Assembly: GCA_016235455.1 (NCBI GenBank)
Contig: JACRKZ010000074.1
Coordinates: forward strand, 1-56,723
Direction of reading: 5' to 3'
From: Armatimonadota bacterium
GTDB lineage: Bacteria; Armatimonadota; UBA10988
Length of the DNA stretch: 56,723 bases
The notes beneath the pieces are model-generated. The model saw only the letters and a program-made list of their open reading frames with translations, did no database searches and was not told the origin of the DNA. This document shows positions 40,753 to 56,267 of this stretch, one piece after another. A program made the position numbers and the translations under genes. How positions within the stretch are numbered: the stretch's first letter is position 1; the number at the start of each line of letters is the position of its first letter.

Positions 40753-42099
40753 ATGCGCATCTTGTTTGTGCAGACCAACACCTATCGGTTGCTGTGGCCG
40801 CAGCCCATCGGCCCGGCGCTCGTGGCGCGGCGGCTGCAGGAGGATGGCCACGAGGTTGAGTTCGTCGACCTCATGGGCGAGGCCGACCCCGCGGCCGCGG
40901 CGCGGTCGGCCGCCAGCCGGTTCGCGCCCGACCTGGCCTGCTTCACCATCCGCAATCGCGATAACCAGTCAGCGGCGCACTACGACGACCCGCTGCCGGG
41001 CATCCGCGCTGTCATCGAGGCGGTGCGCGCGGCAAGCCCCGCGCCGCACCTGCTCGGCGGCACCGCCTTCACCACCTATCCCGCGCGTCTCCTGGACATG
41101 ATGGGCGCCGAGTATGGCCTGGCCGGCGATGACCTGGCCCAGGTCTCGCGCTTCGTGACCTCGCTGGCCGCCGGCCAGCCGGATCTGGCCACGCCAGGGC
41201 TGGTCTATCGCCGCGACGGGCAGGTGGTGGCGAATCCCTTCACTCTGGTCGGCTACCGCGGCCAGCACTTCGACTACCAGCGCCTGGTCGATCCCCGCCG
41301 TTACCGCCGGGCTTACTGGCAGGCGGCGGTGGTGACGCGCACCGGCTGCCCCGAGCGCTGCGCCTATTGCGACACGTACCGCACGTTCGGTCGTGAGTTC
41401 ATCCTGCGTGAGCCGGCGGCCGTGGCCGAGGAGCTACTGGCCTTCAAGCGTGGCGGTCGGGTGCGGGCGGCGTTCCTCATCGACTCCGGGTTCAATCGGC
41501 CTCTGGACCATGCCAAGGCGGTGCTGGAGGCGATCATCCGCGCCGGCGCGCAGTTGCAGTTGTACGGCATCTACGACCCGGGCGAGGGCGACGACGAGTT
41601 CTTCCGCCTGTATGCGCGAGCCGGCGGCATGATGTTCACCGTCTTCGCCGAGAGCCTGTCCGACGCCGTGCTAGGGGAACTGGCCAAGCCGTTTGGTGTC
41701 GCCGAGGTGCTGCGCGACGCGCGGGGTCTGCGGCGCGCGGGGGTGGGGATGATGTTCATGCCCACCTTCGGCGGCCCCGGCGAGACGCGCGAAACCGTGG
41801 CCGAGACGCTCCGGCTGGTGCCCAAGCTGGCGCCGACCATGTGCGACTTCGGTATCGGCTGGCGCATCCAGCCCGGCACGCCGTTGCGCGACCGCGCCGT
41901 CGCCGAGGGCCTGCTGGCCGAAGACGATGACTGCTTCGACGCCACCTTCTATATCTCCCCAGCCACGCCGCGCGACTGGATCGCCGCGCAGATCAAGCGC
42001 TTCCGGCGGCGCCATCCGCTGCTGCCGCTCAACGCCGCGCCGTTCGCCTGGCGGGCGATGACGACCTGGCCGTGGCGCTGGCCAGCCGAAGCCGTGTGA
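40753..42099 (+). CDS. B12-binding radical SAM protein
   Basis: N-terminal cobalamin-binding-like domain (PIG, LGGTAFT); RTGCPERCAYC (CxxxCxxC); GGPGETRET; GGGAGG RBS. Confidence 0.9.
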   Translation: MRILFVQTNTYRLLWPQPIGPALVARRLQEDGHEVEFVDLMGEADPAAAARSAASRFAPDLACFTIRNRDNQSAAHYDDPLPGIRAVIEAVRAASPAPHLLGGTAFTTYPARLLDMMGAEYGLAGDDLAQVSRFVTSLAAGQPDLATPGLVYRRDGQVVANPFTLVGYRGQHFDYQRLVDPRRYRRAYWQAAVVTRTGCPERCAYCDTYRTFGREFILREPAAVAEELLAFKRGGRVRAAFLIDSGFNRPLDHAKAVLEAIIRAGAQLQLYGIYDPGEGDDEFFRLYARAGGMMFTVFAESLSDAVLGELAKPFGVAEVLRDARGLRRAGVGMMFMPTFGGPGETRETVAETLRLVPKLAPTMCDFGIGWRIQPGTPLRDRAVAEGLLAEDDDCFDATFYISPATPRDWIAAQIKRFRRRHPLLPLNAAPFAWRAMTTWPWRWPAEAV

Positions 42100-42110
42100 G
42101 CAAAACGAGA

Positions 42111-42140
42111 ATGGCCGCGGAGCGCGTGCGCCGCGGCCAT
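42111..42140. terminator. hairpin between convergent genes
   Basis: ATGGCCGCGG-N10-CCGCGGCCAT. Confidence 0.5.
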
Positions 42141-42169
42141 CTCCGTCAGCAGTCGGCAAGGGCCGGCGG

Positions 42170-43615
42170 CTACCGCATGGCGGGTGTCAGCACCACCGCC
42201 ACGACCATCTCGGTCGCGGGGTCGCTGGTGGTGCGGTAGAGGTCGCCCGAGAGCGGCAGGTTGGCCAGCAGGCGGCAGGAGTCAGGCGCGCGGAACGTGC
42301 CGCGCGGCAGCACGCCCGAGACGACCAGACTCTGGCCCAGCGGCACGGTGATCGTGGAGCAGGAGCAGGGCACCATGCTGGACTTGGCGATGGAGCCGGC
42401 GGCCCCGGTCTTCAGTTCCAGCAGCGCATCGCCGAAGGTCGGCTCCAGGTGCAGACGCACCCAGCGCTGACCGTCTCCGACCACGGGCCAGGGCACCACC
42501 TTGAGGTCGGTGGTGACCAGGGCCGAGGCCACATCGGCGGCCACCAGCGGCGTCGCGGCGCAGCCTTCGATGGCGCGCAGCGGCGGGACGATCTGGCGGC
42601 TGCAGGTCAGCACGGCGGGCCGCGCCACATCGACCGTGACCGGCTTGGCGTCGAAGATCTGCGTCACCGCCGCCTTGGCCAGTTCGGCCGAGAGCGTGTC
42701 GAGACCGCCGATGGCGCAGCGCAGGTTGGCGTTGCCGGATTCGGCGGGGGCCGTGTTCCACTTCAGGCTCAGCGCCGCGAAGCGGTCGGCGGGCATGACG
42801 AAGTAGCGGGCGTTCAGTTCGATGCGGCCAGCGGCCACGTCGAGTTCCTTGGCCAACTGCGCGAAGCGGTCGACCGCGGCGGGCTCACCCACGGCGATGA
42901 GGGTGCGGCTGGGGTCGTAGCCAATGACGACGGCCGTGCCCGCGGGCAGCGCGATGGCGCCGCGGCAGCCGGGATGCGGGGTCACGCCGCTGGCCAGGTC
43001 GGCCCAGCGCTGGGTGGTGCGGCCGGCCTCCTGGCCGAGCAGCTTGTCCAGCCGGGCGGTCTGGTCCGGCGTCTCATTCTCGCGCCGGGCCAGGCTGGTC
43101 TGGGCGATGGTGTAGCGCACCGGCGTGGGCTGCTCCAGGCCGCCACCAGGTCCGGTGTGCTTGACCGCTGGTCGCCCGAAGTAGGCGGCCAACTGGCTGG
43201 GCAGCGTCTGCTGGCAGTGATAGACCACCTTCTTCACCGCGTCACGGCGCAGTGGCCCGGCCAGCGTGGCCAGCGGCTTGAAGCCGGCTTCCGCGGCATC
43301 ACTGGCGCGGCGCATGACGATCTGGTCACCGACCACGCCGACACTCACGCCGGTCACTTCGGCCAGCATCTCCAGCGCCAGGCGCAGCGAGACGGCGTGG
43401 ACGTCAAGGCTCACCTTGATGTCGGCCACGGCCGGCTGAGCGACGACTTTGGCGCCGCTCTGGCGGCTAAGCTGCGCGGCCACGGCGGCCAACGGCGCGT
43501 CCTGGACGGCCAGGTCCACCAGCGTGTCGAGCGCCGCCTCTTGGGCAAAGACAGGGCACGCTACAGCGACGATCCAGGCCAGCGCGAGGATGGCCTTACG
43601 AGCGGTGCGAGTCAT
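42170..43615 (-). CDS. divergent secretin-like protein (STN + N3 + degenerate secretin domain)
   Basis: Signal peptide; STN-like VDLAVQDAPL; YDPSRTLIAVG..AKELDV..RIELNARY; GQSLVVSG; LANLPLSGDLY; VVLTP at the end. Confidence 0.65.
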   Translation of the reverse strand: MTRTARKAILALAWIVAVACPVFAQEAALDTLVDLAVQDAPLAAVAAQLSRQSGAKVVAQPAVADIKVSLDVHAVSLRLALEMLAEVTGVSVGVVGDQIVMRRASDAAEAGFKPLATLAGPLRRDAVKKVVYHCQQTLPSQLAAYFGRPAVKHTGPGGGLEQPTPVRYTIAQTSLARRENETPDQTARLDKLLGQEAGRTTQRWADLASGVTPHPGCRGAIALPAGTAVVIGYDPSRTLIAVGEPAAVDRFAQLAKELDVAAGRIELNARYFVMPADRFAALSLKWNTAPAESGNANLRCAIGGLDTLSAELAKAAVTQIFDAKPVTVDVARPAVLTCSRQIVPPLRAIEGCAATPLVAADVASALVTTDLKVVPWPVVGDGQRWVRLHLEPTFGDALLELKTGAAGSIAKSSMVPCSCSTITVPLGQSLVVSGVLPRGTFRAPDSCRLLANLPLSGDLYRTTSDPATEMVVAVVLTPAMR

Positions 43616-43666
43616 CAGCTTTCTCCCACCATCGGGACCTCCCACACTATGGAGAGGTCTGCGGAA

Positions 43667-43707
43667 CCGCCGGTTCCGAACCTTGCGGCTCGGAACCGGC
43701 GGGCTAC
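43667..43707 (-). repeat. GTAG-type REP-like hairpin
   Basis: Minus strand GTAGC-CCGCCGGTTCCGAGCC-GCAA-GGTTCGGAACCGGCGG. Confidence 0.65.
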
Positions 43708-43731
43708 AGCTTGCTTGACAGCACGCCCGCG

Positions 43732-45030
43732 CTACGGAGCGGACAGTCGCTGGAAGGTTGCCAGCGCGGAGTTGAGCACGGCCAACGAGTAATCGTGGTT
43801 GTGCACGCCCTTGCTGGGATCATTGATCGAGATCAGGTTGTAGTTCCACTTGGCCACGTCGTAGTCATTGAGGTTCGGACCCGTGAGGGTGTTGCGGTCA
43901 ATGAACAGCGCGTTGCCCGTGGTCACGTACGGCTTGACCTGGTTGAGCTTGGCTGTGAACTCGGCCTGAGTGGTTTCCATCAGGTTGACGGCGACCACAT
44001 CGGCGCCGCTCTCGATGGCTTCCTTGCCCCGCGGCACCGTGGTGCCCGACGGCGTGTGGCAGCCGGACTGCGTGCAGGCCTTGAGGTTAGGCTCGAAGGT
44101 GTGGCCGGTCACATTCGGATTGTCTGTGTTGGGGCTGGGCACGTTCACCTTGAACAGGTGGCAGGTGGCACAGCCTTCGGCGGCCGCGGTCGTGTGCGCC
44201 GAGTTCGGACCCGACATGGCGGTGCCGCTGATCTTGCCGTTCGGCGTGTAGGCGCCCTTGCCCTCGAAGATCAGGCTGGCACCATGACGCGGCGTGCCGG
44301 TGATGGGGATTGCGTCCGTGACCGATGCCGCGCTAAGGCGGTGGCAGGTCTCGCACAACGCCTTCTTCTCCAGCCGCAGCTGAGCGGTGTTGGCGGTCGC
44401 TTCGTGCGGGTCATGGCAGGTCGGGCAGCCAATGTTGGTGCTGCCAACCACGACCTTCGACTTGTGTTCGCCCACCGGCATGATGGGCTGCGACAATTGG
44501 TAGAAGAAGCCCTCCTGCGAGTGGCAGGCCATGCACTTGTCCTGATGGCCGTCGACCACGGACCGCGCGTGCGCCGAATTCTGCCATTCGTCGTAGGTCG
44601 GATGGTGTGCGTCGGTGTGGCAGGTGCCGCAGGCGGCCGACGTCACTTCTCGCGAGAAGGCGGCGCTCGTCGGATTGGCCGCGTGGGCGCTGCCGGCGCC
44701 ATGGCAGTTCTCGCACTGCACGTTCGCCAGGTCCGGGGTCTCGGTCTGATTAATGTAGCCCGAGGTCTGGCCGTAGCCGACCGTGTGGCACGGCACACAA
44801 TTGGCGTTGGTGCCCATGCCGATGTCGGTCAAGGTCTTCAGGGCTTCGGCGTGCTTGGTGCCGTCCCAGTGTTGGCCGGTCTCGACATGGCAGCCCTTGC
44901 AGACCTTGGCGCCCACAAAGGTGCGGCCGCCGCCACCACCGCCCGGTACCGTCTTGTCGCTACCACATCCGGTGATCGCGATCGCCACCACGATCGGTAC
45001 CACCAACAACCATCTCAGCGTTCTGGCCAT
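43732..45030 (-). CDS. multiheme c-type cytochrome lipoprotein (8 CxxCH + 1 CX4CH)
   Basis: Lipobox ITGC; CKGCH, CVPCH, CENCH, CGTCH, CMACH, CPTCH, CETCH, CATCH, CTQSGCH; helical tail with DPSKGVHN; AAGGAGG RBS. Confidence 0.93.
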   Translation of the reverse strand: MARTLRWLLVVPIVVAIAITGCGSDKTVPGGGGGGRTFVGAKVCKGCHVETGQHWDGTKHAEALKTLTDIGMGTNANCVPCHTVGYGQTSGYINQTETPDLANVQCENCHGAGSAHAANPTSAAFSREVTSAACGTCHTDAHHPTYDEWQNSAHARSVVDGHQDKCMACHSQEGFFYQLSQPIMPVGEHKSKVVVGSTNIGCPTCHDPHEATANTAQLRLEKKALCETCHRLSAASVTDAIPITGTPRHGASLIFEGKGAYTPNGKISGTAMSGPNSAHTTAAAEGCATCHLFKVNVPSPNTDNPNVTGHTFEPNLKACTQSGCHTPSGTTVPRGKEAIESGADVVAVNLMETTQAEFTAKLNQVKPYVTTGNALFIDRNTLTGPNLNDYDVAKWNYNLISINDPSKGVHNHDYSLAVLNSALATFQRLSAP

Positions 45031-45157
45031 GCCAGCCTCCTTGTGGGTCGGTGCTAATGCCGACTATTGCTGCCGGATACTGTGTCTGCGCCTGAACTGC
45101 CACAGCCACTCTGGCAATCGCTTCATACAACCTCTTGGCCCAGCCCTGATTCTGGCT

Positions 45158-45174
45158 CGCAAGAGTCGAGCCAG
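45158..45174 (-). promoter_or_regulatory. sigma54-type promoter for the multiheme lipoprotein
   Basis: Minus strand CTGGCTCGACTCTTGCG, exact GG-N10-GC spacing, near the consensus TGGCACG-N4-TTGC. Confidence 0.55.
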
Positions 45175-45520
45175 ACCCAACAAATGTCGCCCGCAGAGTT
45201 TCGTCCAGGGCAAGGGCGAGCCGCGAAGGTGCCTATCATGCACACTGGGCCGCATCGTGTTACGTCTGTCCACTTTCGTGCCGCCCCTCGACTGGATCTT
45301 GATGCCCATGCGGGTATGTCGAACATATTGGTGGTCGGTGTCGGATATTGCCGCTGACACACCGGCGCAATCCCGCTCCCAGAGCCGGTCAACGCGGTAT
45401 CTCACGACGCAACATCCGTCCGCCCCGCCGGCCCGCCGGGCGCTCTGGGTCGCAAGTTGCCTCGCAACGCGGACGCAACACTTTGTCATAAGTCGACTCC
45501 CCGCAGCCGTTTGGGGGGCT

Positions 45521-45537
45521 CTGGCAAAGCAGTTGCA
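45521..45537 (+). promoter_or_regulatory. sigma54-type promoter for the decaheme/porin operon
   Basis: CTGGCAAAGCAGTTGCA, GG-N10-GC, about 90 nt upstream of ATG 45626. Confidence 0.6.
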
Positions 45538-45625
45538 AACGCTGAGGGTGCTTCGGACGCAGTTATGGTTGCCGACAGGTCCGAACGTAATCCACGGCGT
45601 GAGACGGGACAGGAAGGAGCGTGCC

Positions 45626-46540
45626 ATGGGAGCAGTTAGCCGGCACGGACGGCTGCTGTTGGTAGCTGTCCTGGTTGGAGCCGGCGTGTTCACCCTCGGA
45701 GTGCCACCCGCCGGCGGCGAGCAAGCCGCCCCACAGGCCAGTGCCAAGAACGAGCGCATCGGCGCTGACGTGTGTTTGCAGTGCCACACCCAGAATGCCA
45801 AGGGTTGGTTCACGCTGCGCCACAATCGCTATCGTACCTCGGCGTCCGCGCCGGAGATGCTGACCGGCTGCGAAGGTTGCCACGGCCCTGGCCAGAAGCA
45901 CTTGGAGGACGAGAAGTTCCGCAGCATCCTCAACCCCAAGCGGGAGACGGGGATCGTCGCGACGCAGATGTGCTTCCAGTGCCACAGCACGACCATGAAG
46001 GCCAGTGCCTGGTTGCAGACGGCGCACGCGAAGAACGGCGTCAACTGCGGTGGCTGCCACGAGATGCACACCGACACGGGCCAGCCGTCGCTGCTCAAGG
46101 CCGAGCCGACCAAGCTCTGCCTGTCCTGCCATCCTGATCAACAGGCGCAGTTCAAGCTCAACTCGCACCATCCGGTGCTCGAAGGGCGCGTGGCCTGCAC
46201 CGACTGCCATGATCCGCACGCGGACGGCACCATGTCAGCGCCGACCCTCAAGCAGGGCGAAGACCGCTGCCTCAAGTGCCATCAGGAGAAGCGTGGTCCG
46301 TTCGCCTTCGAGCATCAGACCTCGTTGGCTGGCGGTGACGACGGCTGCGTGGCCTGCCACAAGCCGCACGGATCGGCCAATCCGAAGCTGACGGCCTACT
46401 TCGGCCGCGGCGTCTGCCTCCAGTGCCACAGTGACATCGCCGCGGATCCCAAGCACCTGCCGCGAGCGGGTAACTGCTGGTCGGCGGGGTGCCACAACCG
46501 GATGCACGGTTCGAGCACCAACCGGCTGTTCATCAACTAG
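45626..46540 (+). CDS. DmsE/MtrA/PioA family periplasmic decaheme cytochrome c
   Basis: Nine CxxCH plus terminal CWSAGCH; family signatures SHHPVLEG, EKRGPFAFEH, HKPHGS, MHGS; AAGGAG RBS; signal peptide. Confidence 0.93.
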   Translation: MGAVSRHGRLLLVAVLVGAGVFTLGVPPAGGEQAAPQASAKNERIGADVCLQCHTQNAKGWFTLRHNRYRTSASAPEMLTGCEGCHGPGQKHLEDEKFRSILNPKRETGIVATQMCFQCHSTTMKASAWLQTAHAKNGVNCGGCHEMHTDTGQPSLLKAEPTKLCLSCHPDQQAQFKLNSHHPVLEGRVACTDCHDPHADGTMSAPTLKQGEDRCLKCHQEKRGPFAFEHQTSLAGGDDGCVACHKPHGSANPKLTAYFGRGVCLQCHSDIAADPKHLPRAGNCWSAGCHNRMHGSSTNRLFIN

Positions 46541-46552
46541 GAGGGCCACACC

Positions 46553-48166
46553 ATGTCAAAGCATCGTACAAGCTGGTTGGTGCTGGGTCTGGCCCTGCTG
46601 GGCCGGGCTGGCTGGGCGGCGGAGGATCCGCTCCTGGCCGAGGCGCGCAAGGCTCCACCCATCTCCGGCGTGTTCACGCCCTATGCCTCGGCCTTCGAGG
46701 TCTCGGGCAATGCCGCTCAGGCTGGGCGCTATCTGGCGCCTCATGCCGAGGTCGGCTTCAGCGTCGATGATCTGAGCCTGCGTGCGGCCGACGGCTTCGA
46801 CGCCCTCGACCTGTGGGCGCATGGCGCGTTTGGCTACAACCAGCGCAACCTGCTCCAGGTCTGGACGCACGAGATCCCGGCCCGGCTGCGCGTCAACTAT
46901 GGTCGCTCGCTGTTCGTCTCCGAGCCGACGCTGCTGGGCCAGCCCTTGGGCTCGCGCAGTTCGGTGTCCTACGACCTGTTGGTCCGACCGGCGACTTGGG
47001 CGGCGGTCAGCGGCGGCTACCGCAACGACAACGATCGCCTCGGCCTGCTGGCTCGTGGCGGCACCATCATGAACCGTGGCACCGAGGCCTGGGGCGCGCT
47101 GAACATCGACACCGGCATGGGTGTCCTGGGCGGCTACTTCAGCACCTCCGACTACCGCGACCGCGCGGTGGGTCAGCCGAGTTCGTCCACGCTCCAGTAC
47201 GGCGTCAACTACGACGGCGTGTTTGGCAAGCAGTGGGCGCTGGCCGGTGGAGCCCGGTGGGCGGAGATCCGCATCCCCGGCGCGCCGAAGTCGACGGTCT
47301 TCCTGGCCGGCGTCAGCGGTAGCTACCAAGCGTCGAGCAACCTGTCGTTCGACGCGCGCTGGCGCTACCGCGACGTGGTCTGGGGCCCGACCCAGAACGC
47401 CTATCTGGGCCGCAGCAATGGTGGTGGCGCGAGCCTGACCTATCGGCCGTGGAAGCCGATGACGGTGCGCGCGGGCTTCGAGATCAGCGAGTTGCAGCGC
47501 TTCAACGCGACGCAGACCGCCCTCGAGAAGCCGGGCGAGACCCGCTTCTGGGTGCGCGCCGACTACCGCGGTGGGCGCAGCCTGAAGGCCTCGGCCTCCT
47601 ACCAGCTGCGTAGCCTGAGCCGGCTGGCGGTCAGCGCCGTGCCGGGCATCACCAACACCGCGCCGCTGTTTGCCGACAGCGACCAGCGGGTCGACCTGCG
47701 GGCCAGCCGCATGATCGGCGGCAGTGGTCTGGGCTATGCGTTCTACCAGTACCGCCAGATCCACTCCGACACACGCGCTATCGACAGCGCCGTGGGCACC
47801 GTCGGCGTGGGCTTGACGATGCCGCTGAGCCACAGCCTGACCGGTACCACCGACTGGTACTACCGCTACGCTACCGACAGCCAACTCAGTATGGCGGGCC
47901 TGGGCACGGACACCGTGGTCGCGCACGTCGGACTGGGCTGGCAGCCCGGCCCCAGGTGGCACATGACCGCGGACTATCACTGGGTCAACAGCTACTATGG
48001 CCAGGCGGCGTCGGACCACTACATCGCCGCTACCCTCGGCTATGACGCGGGCAAGAACTCGACCTTCCAGTTGAGCTACTCGCGCGATGGCTATGATGGC
48101 GGCCTGTTCCCCGGGCTCGACTACGACGCGGACATCTTCCGCTTCAGCCTGGTGAACAAGTTCTAG
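46553..48166 (+). CDS. outer-membrane beta-barrel, MtrB/PioB-like porin partner
   Basis: Directly follows the decaheme gene; signal peptide; alternating aromatic/Gly strands; C-terminal Phe (FSLVNKF). Confidence 0.8.
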   Translation: MSKHRTSWLVLGLALLGRAGWAAEDPLLAEARKAPPISGVFTPYASAFEVSGNAAQAGRYLAPHAEVGFSVDDLSLRAADGFDALDLWAHGAFGYNQRNLLQVWTHEIPARLRVNYGRSLFVSEPTLLGQPLGSRSSVSYDLLVRPATWAAVSGGYRNDNDRLGLLARGGTIMNRGTEAWGALNIDTGMGVLGGYFSTSDYRDRAVGQPSSSTLQYGVNYDGVFGKQWALAGGARWAEIRIPGAPKSTVFLAGVSGSYQASSNLSFDARWRYRDVVWGPTQNAYLGRSNGGGASLTYRPWKPMTVRAGFEISELQRFNATQTALEKPGETRFWVRADYRGGRSLKASASYQLRSLSRLAVSAVPGITNTAPLFADSDQRVDLRASRMIGGSGLGYAFYQYRQIHSDTRAIDSAVGTVGVGLTMPLSHSLTGTTDWYYRYATDSQLSMAGLGTDTVVAHVGLGWQPGPRWHMTADYHWVNSYYGQAASDHYIAATLGYDAGKNSTFQLSYSRDGYDGGLFPGLDYDADIFRFSLVNKF

Positions 48167-48183
48167 GCAACGCTCCCATGGCC

Positions 48184-48216
48184 CAGCGGCCCGCCGGCCT
48201 CGCCGGCGGGCCGCTG
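48184..48216. terminator. 15-bp perfect hairpin ending the porin-cytochrome operon
   Basis: CAGCGGCCCGCCGGC-CTC-GCCGGCGGGCCGCTG between convergent genes. Confidence 0.7.
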
Positions 48217-48227
48217 CGCTTTGGGGC

Positions 48228-48848
48228 TTACCGGCGACCGACCGCCACGAACACGCCGTACGTGCGCGGGATGCCGTGGACATCCGGCCGCGTTACGCGA
48301 TGGGCATCGGCCACGCGCACCTCGCCACAGCCCGCCGCGCGCAGCCAGGCGGCCATCGTCTCGCGCTGGAACCCCTGGTGGTGGACGTCGTCGACATCCG
48401 GCCCGTGGAAGCTGCCATCCTCGGCATCGAGATCGGCCAGCGCCAGCCAGCCACCAGGCTTGACCGCGCCCACCAGCCGCGCCAGCAACGCCGGCACGTC
48501 GGCAATGTGGTGCAGCGTCATCGAGCTGACCACGGCGTCCACCGGCTCGCCGTCCCACGCCGCGCGGGTCAGGTCGACGCGGTGCGTGGTCACCTGAGTC
48601 AGTCCCGCGGCCGACAGCTTGTCGTCCAGCACGTCGAGCATGCCCGTCGAGCAATCTACGGCGACCACCTCGGCCACGGAATCGAGCAGCCGCAACGTGA
48701 CCAGCCCCGTGCCCGCGCCGAAGTCCATGATGCGCCAGTCCGGCGCGAACGGCACCTCGCGACGCATGGCGTCAGCCACGCCGGTACCCAGCGCGGCGCG
48801 CACGGGGTTGGTGTCCCATTGCGGGGCAAGCGTGTCGAATCGGCTCAT
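48228..48848 (-). CDS. class I SAM-dependent methyltransferase
   Basis: MDFGAGTG, VAVDCS, SMTLHHI, VKPGG, DLDAEDGSFH. Confidence 0.92.
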   Translation of the reverse strand: MSRFDTLAPQWDTNPVRAALGTGVADAMRREVPFAPDWRIMDFGAGTGLVTLRLLDSVAEVVAVDCSTGMLDVLDDKLSAAGLTQVTTHRVDLTRAAWDGEPVDAVVSSMTLHHIADVPALLARLVGAVKPGGWLALADLDAEDGSFHGPDVDDVHHQGFQRETMAAWLRAAGCGEVRVADAHRVTRPDVHGIPRTYGVFVAVGRR

Positions 48849-54962: not shown

Positions 54963-56267
54963 ATGACCACGCATCGCTCGTTGGCCCTAGCCGCGCTGGC
55001 CGGTCTGTCGTTGCTCGCCGGCTTGGCCGCCGACCCGGCCAAGCCGGGCTTCACGCTCTACTACACCCACGACGCCATGGGCTACCTGGAGTCGTGCGGC
55101 TGCGCCGGCCCGGTCATTGGCCTGGCCGATATGGTCAACGAGCTGATGGCCCGGCGCAAAGCCGTCACGGGTCCGACGTTGACGCTCGATGGCGGCAACC
55201 TGAGCAAGGACCAATCACGCGGCAGGATCGTCTGGGACGCGCTGAGCCGCGGCGGATACGACGTGGTCGCCTTCGGCCCGTCCGATGTGGCCTGGCAGCA
55301 CGAGTATTGGCCGATGGTCTTCGAGAAGAAGCTGCCGGTGCTCGTGGGTCCCTGGTTCCAGCATGGCAACAACCTGGCCAACGGCATCGCCGTGCCGCGC
55401 TGGACCAAGAAGCTGGGCGACCTGACCGTCGGCGTGACCAGCAGCGGCCCGCGCGCCGAGGTGGTCGACAAGGAGGTCAAGGCCACGCAAGCCGTCCTGG
55501 CCGAGCTGAGGAAGACCTGTGACGTGGTGATCCTGGTCAGCTACCACGACATCGGCGTGGAACGCGCGCTGGTCGACACCGGCCTGCTGGGCGATGCCGA
55601 TCTGGTCATCGGCTGCCGCGGCTGCGCGCTGCTGGAGAACCCCGAGCAGACGCGCAACACCTGGTTCCTGCCCGAGGCCCCCCAAGGCCGCCGCTTCGGC
55701 CAGCTCAAGCTCAGCGTCTCGCCTGCCGACGCCGCCCTGGCTCAGACCGGCCGCAAGTACAAGCTGGCCCTGGCCTACGAGAGCATCACGCCCAAGCAGA
55801 GCGCGAAGGCCGATGACCCCATCGTGGCCGACACCAGGAAGCAGCAGCAACGCGAGGCGCGCATTCAGGTGGCCAAGGGCTACGACAGCGACCTGGACGT
55901 CATGGCCAAGTACGGCTACGTGCCCTCTGACCGCTGCGCGACCTGCCATCGCGAGCAGTATGTGGCCTGGGGCCGCAGCCGCCATGCGCAGGCCTTCCGG
56001 ACGCTGCTGGACAAGAAGGCGCTGCGCGATGAGTGCCTGCCGTGCCATGCCTATGAGATCAAGGCGACCGGCAAGTTCCTCACGCCGACCAAGCAGGAAC
56101 GCGGCGTGGAGTGCATCGCCTGCCACGGCAACGGCATGGTGCATCTGTACATTCCGCGGAAGGACACCATCGACCGCGGCGACCGCACGCTGTGCGTGGG
56201 CTGCCACACCCAGGTCAACGACCCGAACTGGGATGCCGAAAAGCGCTGGGCGGCGATAGCGCACTGA
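54963..56267 (+). CDS. UshA/metallophosphoesterase-like domain fused to a tetraheme c554-like cytochrome
   Basis: Signal peptide; YYTHDAMGYLESCGC, LDGGN, DVVILVS; CATCH, CLPCH, CIACH, CVGCH. Confidence 0.8.
   Translation: MTTHRSLALAALAGLSLLAGLAADPAKPGFTLYYTHDAMGYLESCGCAGPVIGLADMVNELMARRKAVTGPTLTLDGGNLSKDQSRGRIVWDALSRGGYDVVAFGPSDVAWQHEYWPMVFEKKLPVLVGPWFQHGNNLANGIAVPRWTKKLGDLTVGVTSSGPRAEVVDKEVKATQAVLAELRKTCDVVILVSYHDIGVERALVDTGLLGDADLVIGCRGCALLENPEQTRNTWFLPEAPQGRRFGQLKLSVSPADAALAQTGRKYKLALAYESITPKQSAKADDPIVADTRKQQQREARIQVAKGYDSDLDVMAKYGYVPSDRCATCHREQYVAWGRSRHAQAFRTLLDKKALRDECLPCHAYEIKATGKFLTPTKQERGVECIACHGNGMVHLYIPRKDTIDRGDRTLCVGCHTQVNDPNWDAEKRWAAIAH

Follow-up and report, generated by a model that had tools for sequence, protein, structure and literature searches.

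The closest described system to the locus considered here is MtrCAB of Shewanella (PDB 6R2Q; PMC7198977). The locus lies on a contig of 56,723 nucleotides from an Armatimonadota bacterium (GenBank assembly GCA_016235455.1, contig JACRKZ010000074.1), which is referred to in its full length as the window. As in MtrCAB, an MtrA-like decahaem cytochrome gene stands directly before the gene of a predicted 26-strand barrel with the MtrB fold, and the third gene encodes a multihaem lipoprotein. In contrast to MtrCAB, this third gene is OcwA-like instead of mtrC and is transcribed divergently in the window's family, the barrel shows 11-12% identity to MtrB and is missed by the hidden Markov models (HMMs) for MtrB, and the decahaem has CX4CH as its tenth motif. 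By analogy the locus would work like MtrCAB; it is not a member of that system because MtrC is absent and the MtrB HMM is not matched. On balance we favour the view that the decahaem, the barrel and the lipoprotein form a three-part outward electron conduit in which the OcwA-like protein takes the place of MtrC.

OcwA of Thermincola potens (PDB 6I5B; 10.1101/641308) is described as combining a c554 module with one of NrfA type, two of its haem sites being open and lying beneath His-His pairs. The protein has been proposed as the terminal reductase on the surface of Thermincola, and in vitro it reduces nitrite and turns over hydroxylamine (10.1101/641308, 10.1101/2022.02.24.481543). The lipoprotein of the window shares with OcwA and with OmhA (PDB 6QVM) the nine motifs, the c554-like N-terminal module, the NrfA-like C-terminal module, the three-helix GVHN tail and the first His-His pair. 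Unlike OcwA it is a lipoprotein, comes from a bacterium that has an outer membrane and is linked to a porin-cytochrome pair; most of the extra beta-sheet insert is absent and the second pair is Arg-His.

The signal peptide of the lipoprotein ends with ITG before Cys22, and the mature protein contains 8 CxxCH and 1 CX4CH motifs followed by GVHN and a terminal helix. The earlier note on this DNA had described a lipoprotein with these motif counts and a GVHN helical tail, and both the sequence and the structure model, with its three long C-terminal helices, agree with it. Its label of c554-like nonahaem can be refined to a relative of a solved protein combining c554 and NrfA modules. OcwA was the best PDB match by sequence (E 4.5e-12), and a 120-row profile of the lipoprotein family found OcwA at E 2e-62 and OmhA at 3.6e-55. 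A fold search with the model placed OcwA first (E 4.9e-10, TM 0.64), followed by OmhA, NrfA and octahaem nitrite reductases. The nine haems, the two modules and the three-helix bundle of OcwA were all found. His142/His143 align with OcwA 281/282, the His-His pair over haem 2, and His occupies each of these columns in 115 of the 120 family rows. Arg248/His249 fall at OcwA 380/381, which form the His-His pair over haem 5; here 107 and 106 of the 120 family rows carry His. Near the haem-9 Met of OcwA a His is conserved in 119/120 rows and may replace Met as the ligand, a position placed by eye where HMMER leaves a gap and the model is haem-free. Most of the extra beta-sheet domain of OcwA (75-156) is absent: in the alignments OcwA chain residues 47-107 or more are left unmatched, and no strand as long as 3 residues occurs in the model. 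No protein of the 93% complete genome exceeded the cut-off of the MtrC/OmcA family TIGR03507 (best 27.2 bits, cut-off 209.3).

A motif scan of the decahaem found 9 CxxCH and 1 CX4CH, the latter being the tenth motif. The protein matched MtrA of the solved Mtr complex (6R2Q_A) with E 5.2e-30 and narrowly missed the DmsE family TIGR03508 (190.5 bits, cut-off 192.2) while covering profile positions 1-257 of 258, which agrees with the DmsE/MtrA signatures noted earlier. Its last six haem motifs and terminal HGS were invariant across 30 aligned relatives. With ten haem motifs, an export signal recognised by inspection and homology to MtrA, the product can be classed as MtrA-like.

The barrel gene starts 12 bases after the decahaem stop codon. 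At E 0.1 the barrel did not match the MtrB/PioB HMMs PF11854 and TIGR03509, for which the whole genome contained no protein above the cut-off, and the best PDB matches of its sequence profile were general porins. The structure model, however, predicts 26 strands in the fold of MtrB (rmsd 2.7 A over 495 residues), and in the fold comparison MtrB was far ahead of every other barrel. An unrelated, narrow porin, which the earlier note had named as a possible outcome of modelling, was not what emerged. The same note correctly called the barrel shorter than canonical MtrB; it lacks about 135 residues of the solved chain, yet according to the model it keeps all 26 strands. In four natural proteins (P0144, P0148, P0152 and P0205), apparently from two separate lineages, an MtrA-like multihaem domain and a barrel of this 26-strand family are fused in a single chain. 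These fusions lend indirect support to a barrel enclosing the decahaem; a literature search aimed at them, covering the available text of papers, found none. Together, the MtrA homology, the MtrB-shaped model and the fusions support the porin-cytochrome reading, and decahaem and barrel would almost certainly form a conduit. Compared with GSU2203/GSU2204 of Geobacter (NF041028, NF041027), the decahaem reached 192.7 bits, far under the cut-off of 325, and the barrel 24.1 bits against 350. It has no Cys and hence no CxxCH, and several related barrels matched NF041027 weakly, far below the cut-off. Two barrel-family open reading frames (ORFs; L018:8243-10357, -, and L132:4698-6785, +) carry an N-terminal extension with 1 or 2 CxxCH, recalling the description of GSU2204.

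The association of the three genes was surveyed in 301 genomes of the phylum. With a threshold of E <= 1e-5 the barrel profile matched 96 of them, 74 strongly. In 49 barrel loci (9 from an earlier search and 40 hand-picked) the decahaem gene lay on the strand of the barrel gene and upstream of it in 47 cases, which is far beyond chance. A gene matching the OcwA profile was present in 38 of the 49 loci, in 30 downstream and in 3 upstream on the same strand, and in 5 divergent. Full-length OcwA-like genes occurred in 57 of the 301 genomes. All but two of these (55/57) had a strong barrel match, which in 52 lay on the same contig at a distance of no more than 7 kb; one of the remaining two had a barrel fragment beside the OcwA-like gene and in the other no barrel was found. 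Nineteen genomes had a barrel without a full-length OcwA-like match (6-haem variants included) and 225 had neither. As a genetic association, the proposal of a partner other than MtrC thus holds, and the suspicion that the lipoprotein might never accompany the pair was not borne out. Divergent transcription, also noted earlier, is real here and peculiar to the window's family, to which all 5 such loci belong (5/38); elsewhere the gene is on the strand of the barrel. Of the 38 loci, 10 have a partner with 9 haem motifs, 24 have one with 8 and 4 have one with 6. In an alignment of 20 partners, most of them with a lipobox and a Gly-rich linker, haem 2 and the His-His pair belonging to it are missing from the 8-haem form, and haems 5-7 from the 6-haem form.

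Outside the phylum, 80 loci bearing the lipoprotein were collected, of which 67 (some in short stretches) had a full-length relative. An MtrA-like/barrel pair adjoined 20 of the 67. Fifteen loci, which belong to Verrucomicrobiota, Binatia, one deltaproteobacterium and unclassified records, had the order nonahaem, MtrA-like protein, barrel, which matches the order mtrC-mtrA-mtrB described for Mtr genes (PMC12133095).

Several observations weigh against a three-part conduit. The OcwA-profile gene was missing in 11 of the 49 barrel loci, although contig ends cut 4 of these. The surveyed genomes are kin, so the linkage counts reflect conservation in non-independent events and carry no statistical test. 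Because the lipoprotein gene is divergent in the window and in its family relatives, co-transcription is excluded there. Two further 8-haem lipoprotein families occur in or beside the third-gene slot, added to the OcwA-like gene or replacing it (Table 1). The main evidence against an obligatory partnership comes from the 47 of 67 full-length relatives in other groups that had no pair in the stretch retrieved around them, among them every Phycisphaerae locus and three from Actinomycetota; the OcwA-like fold has other uses. To these may be added the presence of a COX1-family gene, with which inward flow would be compatible, and the turnover of nitrite and hydroxylamine by OcwA, in view of which the lipoprotein may have a periplasmic enzyme role.

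In the mechanism we propose, a b-type cytochrome of the inner membrane would oxidise quinol together with multihaem relays; such proteins are encoded after the barrel in several relatives and on two other contigs (C85 and C147) of this genome. Electrons would then cross the outer membrane through the decahaem, threaded through the barrel as in PDB 6R2Q, and pass from its last haem to the lipoprotein, which would sit on the outside of the cell. There it might reduce external acceptors, for example Fe(III)/Mn(IV) oxides, humic quinones or partner cells, while the cells grow anoxically on sugars. It very likely serves the same pathway as the decahaem-barrel pair and is probably the surface terminal; electron flow is quite likely to be mainly outward. 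The third component draws support from the linkage and from the known role of OcwA. Different lineages have lost one or the other pocket, which speaks for electron transfer more than for a fixed enzyme role, without proving it.

It is possible, if unlikely, that the wire has two parts and ends at the last haem of the decahaem, with the lipoprotein as a periplasmic relay feeding it or a nitrite- or hydroxylamine-reducing enzyme of the same chain. The divergent gene in the window's family would fit this, as would the enzymatic activities of OcwA, the many relatives elsewhere without an adjoining pair and the fact that no surface-export signal was identified; moreover, MtrAB alone is described as exposing haem A10 and allowing reduction of soluble Fe(III) (PMC7198977). 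However, one lineage lacks haem 2 along with the His-His pair (24 loci) and another lacks haems 5-7 (4 loci), and in both the gene keeps its position, so that neither pocket is essential to the slot. In the 15 distant loci the gene occupies the position of mtrC, and He et al. predicted the extra multihaem protein of Verrucomicrobia clusters to be extracellular (PMC5615132).

Distinctly less probable is that the same three-part conduit runs inward in the manner of MtoAB/PioAB and supplies quinone and oxygen with electrons drawn from Fe(II), reduced humics or partner cells. Besides the COX1-family gene, a relative (G005) with Rieske and cytochrome b6-like genes in its cluster points in this direction, and Kato et al. 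put an Armatimonadota decahaem nearer to PioA/MtoA and suggested Fe(II) oxidation (PMC9671151). On the other hand, MtoAB and PioAB are described without an extracellular multihaem protein (PMC5566968), OcwA is a proposed terminal reductase, and the sugar-transport and glycosidase-like genes of the window, recognised by reading without a family scan, fit a heterotroph with surplus electrons. Very improbable, finally, is a barrel acting as an unrelated solute channel or exporter beside which ordinary periplasmic redox proteins happen to cluster. The missing HMM match and the general porins heading the PDB matches would agree with such a channel; the 26-strand model, for which MtrB scored far above other barrels, the adjacent decahaem in 47 of 49 loci and the natural fusions speak against it.

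The earlier note held such a conduit to be, as far as known, experimentally uncharacterised in an Armatimonadota-like background; bioinformatic precedents for the arrangement do exist. He et al. (2017) described in Verrucomicrobia a porin with an 8-haem periplasmic multihaem protein and sometimes an extracellular one (PMC5615132). That cluster resembles the present locus in its porin, its periplasmic multihaem protein and, in several cases, an extracellular multihaem protein, but has 8 instead of 10 haems and a barrel of ~700-770 instead of 537 amino acids (aa). The Verrucomicrobiota loci in our analysis, whose barrels are homologous to that of the window, encode an MtrA-like protein with 8 motifs, matching the count of He et al., and are probably the same cluster (locus tags uncompared); the available text of He et al. 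does not state how the extra multihaem protein relates to OcwA. Kato et al. (2022) reported MtoAB-like genes in one Armatimonadota metagenome-assembled genome (MAG), and the accessible part of that paper mentions neither a third component nor a phylum-wide distribution (PMC9671151). MtoAB and PioAB share the core of decahaem and porin with our locus, and in the case of Kato et al. also the phylum; a surface multihaem protein is described for neither. Iron-reduction genes in one Armatimonadota MAG were noted in another metagenome paper (PMC13055281), and ferrihydrite reduction has been reported for Limisphaera isolates (PMC13608581). The terms Armatimonad, Verrucomicrob and OcwA are all absent from the main text of an MtrCAB survey (PMC8805035). 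Our literature search, whose scope was the available text of papers without supplements that may bear on the matter, found none on an OcwA-type partner of MtrAB or on a phylum-wide distribution in Armatimonadota. Conduits of this class are well known and the arrangement is not without precedent; what sets the locus apart is the spread in the phylum, the invisibility to standard HMMs, the series of 9, 8 and 6 haems and the fusions.

There is an even chance, in our estimate, that about a quarter of the sampled genomes of the phylum (74/301) possess an MtrB-fold conduit invisible to HMMs, with an OcwA-type surface end pruned to 9, 8 or 6 haems through loss of one or other pocket, and sometimes with decahaem and barrel as one polypeptide. 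If so, MtrAB wires would have a third and widespread class of surface terminal, which the phylum would share with Verrucomicrobiota and Binatia and which would link Gram-positive and Gram-negative extracellular respiration in polysaccharide degraders. Many uncultured sugar degraders of groundwater, sediments and reactors would respire minerals, humic matter or electrodes and be overlooked by surveys relying on MtrB and MtrC HMMs. An MtrAB core accepting a surface cytochrome of the NrfA/OcwA fold would also be a test of the modularity of such wires. The natural haem series offers a test of which OcwA pocket matters, and the compact barrel and single-chain fusions are attractive for structural work and for engineered electron transfer in laboratory strains.

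Table 1. Features of the locus (window positions) and lipoproteins of further families (locus given)
Feature	Position	Strand	Remarks
OcwA-like nonahaem c-type lipoprotein	43732..45030	-	432 aa; lipobox Cys22; His142/His143, Arg248/His249; GVHN His410; three C-terminal helices
Divergent intergenic region	45031..45625		595 bases, between lipoprotein and decahaem genes
MtrA/DmsE-like decahaem cytochrome	45626..46540	+	304 aa; 9 CxxCH + CX4CH; N-terminal signal peptide by inspection
MtrB-fold outer-membrane barrel, predicted 26 strands	46553..48166	+	537 aa; no Cys; C-terminal Phe; missed by MtrB/PioB HMM
Secretin-like gene directly downstream of lipoprotein gene	42170..43615	-	link to conduit possible, unproven
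8-haem lipoproteins of further families	L016:1652-3124, L125:10807-12039, L109:9584-10780, L146:9903-11033		

ORF and motif checks found the three genes where the earlier note had placed them, with its motif counts and the Phe end of the barrel; the final 50 bases of its interval 43732..48216 (48167-48216) are intergenic. No promoter consensus site was found in the 595 bases between the divergent genes. The window (contig C4) belongs to a genome of 6.5 Mb with 69% GC. An independent contig from another assembly (run X2), possibly of the source sample, covers 42000-48300 unbroken with 11 base differences and no gaps. The top three runs matching the DNA are from groundwater and belong to one study, and near-identical pieces also occur in a freshwater run. 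Close relatives of the lipoprotein and the barrel carry the names Armatimonadota or Armatimonadia in their source records, which is the basis of the phylum assignment.

Further genes of a possible electron chain were found in relatives. In G002 and G004 a CcmF-like gene lies between the lipoprotein and decahaem genes; after the barrel come 7-, 11- and 7-haem genes, the gene of a b-type cytochrome with weak resemblance to formate dehydrogenase gamma and an 18-haem gene. In G005 the 26-haem gene has an NrfH-like anchor; there, after the conduit genes, come 7-haem, Rieske, cytochrome b6-like, subunit IV-like, 9-, 26-, 11- and 7-haem genes (L012:129-8199), which as a predicted set make up a whole envelope-spanning chain. 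In the genome of the window, contig C147 carries CcmF-like and 7-haem genes, and C85 carries 11-haem, 7-haem, cytochrome b and 18-haem genes next to AhbC/AhbD-like genes; on both, the haem counts and N-termini resemble those of the relatives (unaligned). The cytochrome b gene of C85 (L020:8030-8688, -) is split in the assembly. All four runs compared differ from the assembly there by an indel that fits an intact frame; the split probably stems from an assembly error or is confined to a single strain. The genome also encodes BamA and has three NiFe hydrogenase loci.

The secretin-like gene, one of only two such copies in this genome, has orthologues beside the lipoprotein gene in G001 and G002, and GspE/GspF-like genes were recognised by reading in G004. 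Type II secretion serves surface export in Shewanella, and by analogy the secretin-like gene could matter for export of the lipoprotein to the surface. The locus is flanked by a B12-binding radical SAM gene (40753-42099, +) and a SAM methyltransferase gene (48228-48848, -), which were not seen as conserved neighbours in the mapped loci of the family. Farther along the window (54963-56267, +) lies the gene of an exported protein with a UshA-like N-terminal region and a four-haem c554-like C-terminal module (NF041198, 137 bits against 275); two similar four-haem proteins are encoded on contigs C46 and C47. A four-haem and five-haem pair resembling NrfH/NrfA, with CxxCH at all five sites, was observed at G000:C151:57490-59793 (+). 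Among the relatives outside the phylum, the OcwA-like nonahaems of Phycisphaerae, which lack a porin pair, are ~590-890 aa long, and in two loci (L029:8675-13643 and L032:8498-13634) the nonahaem gene is followed by genes whose products, judged by motif, look like NiFe hydrogenase subunits.

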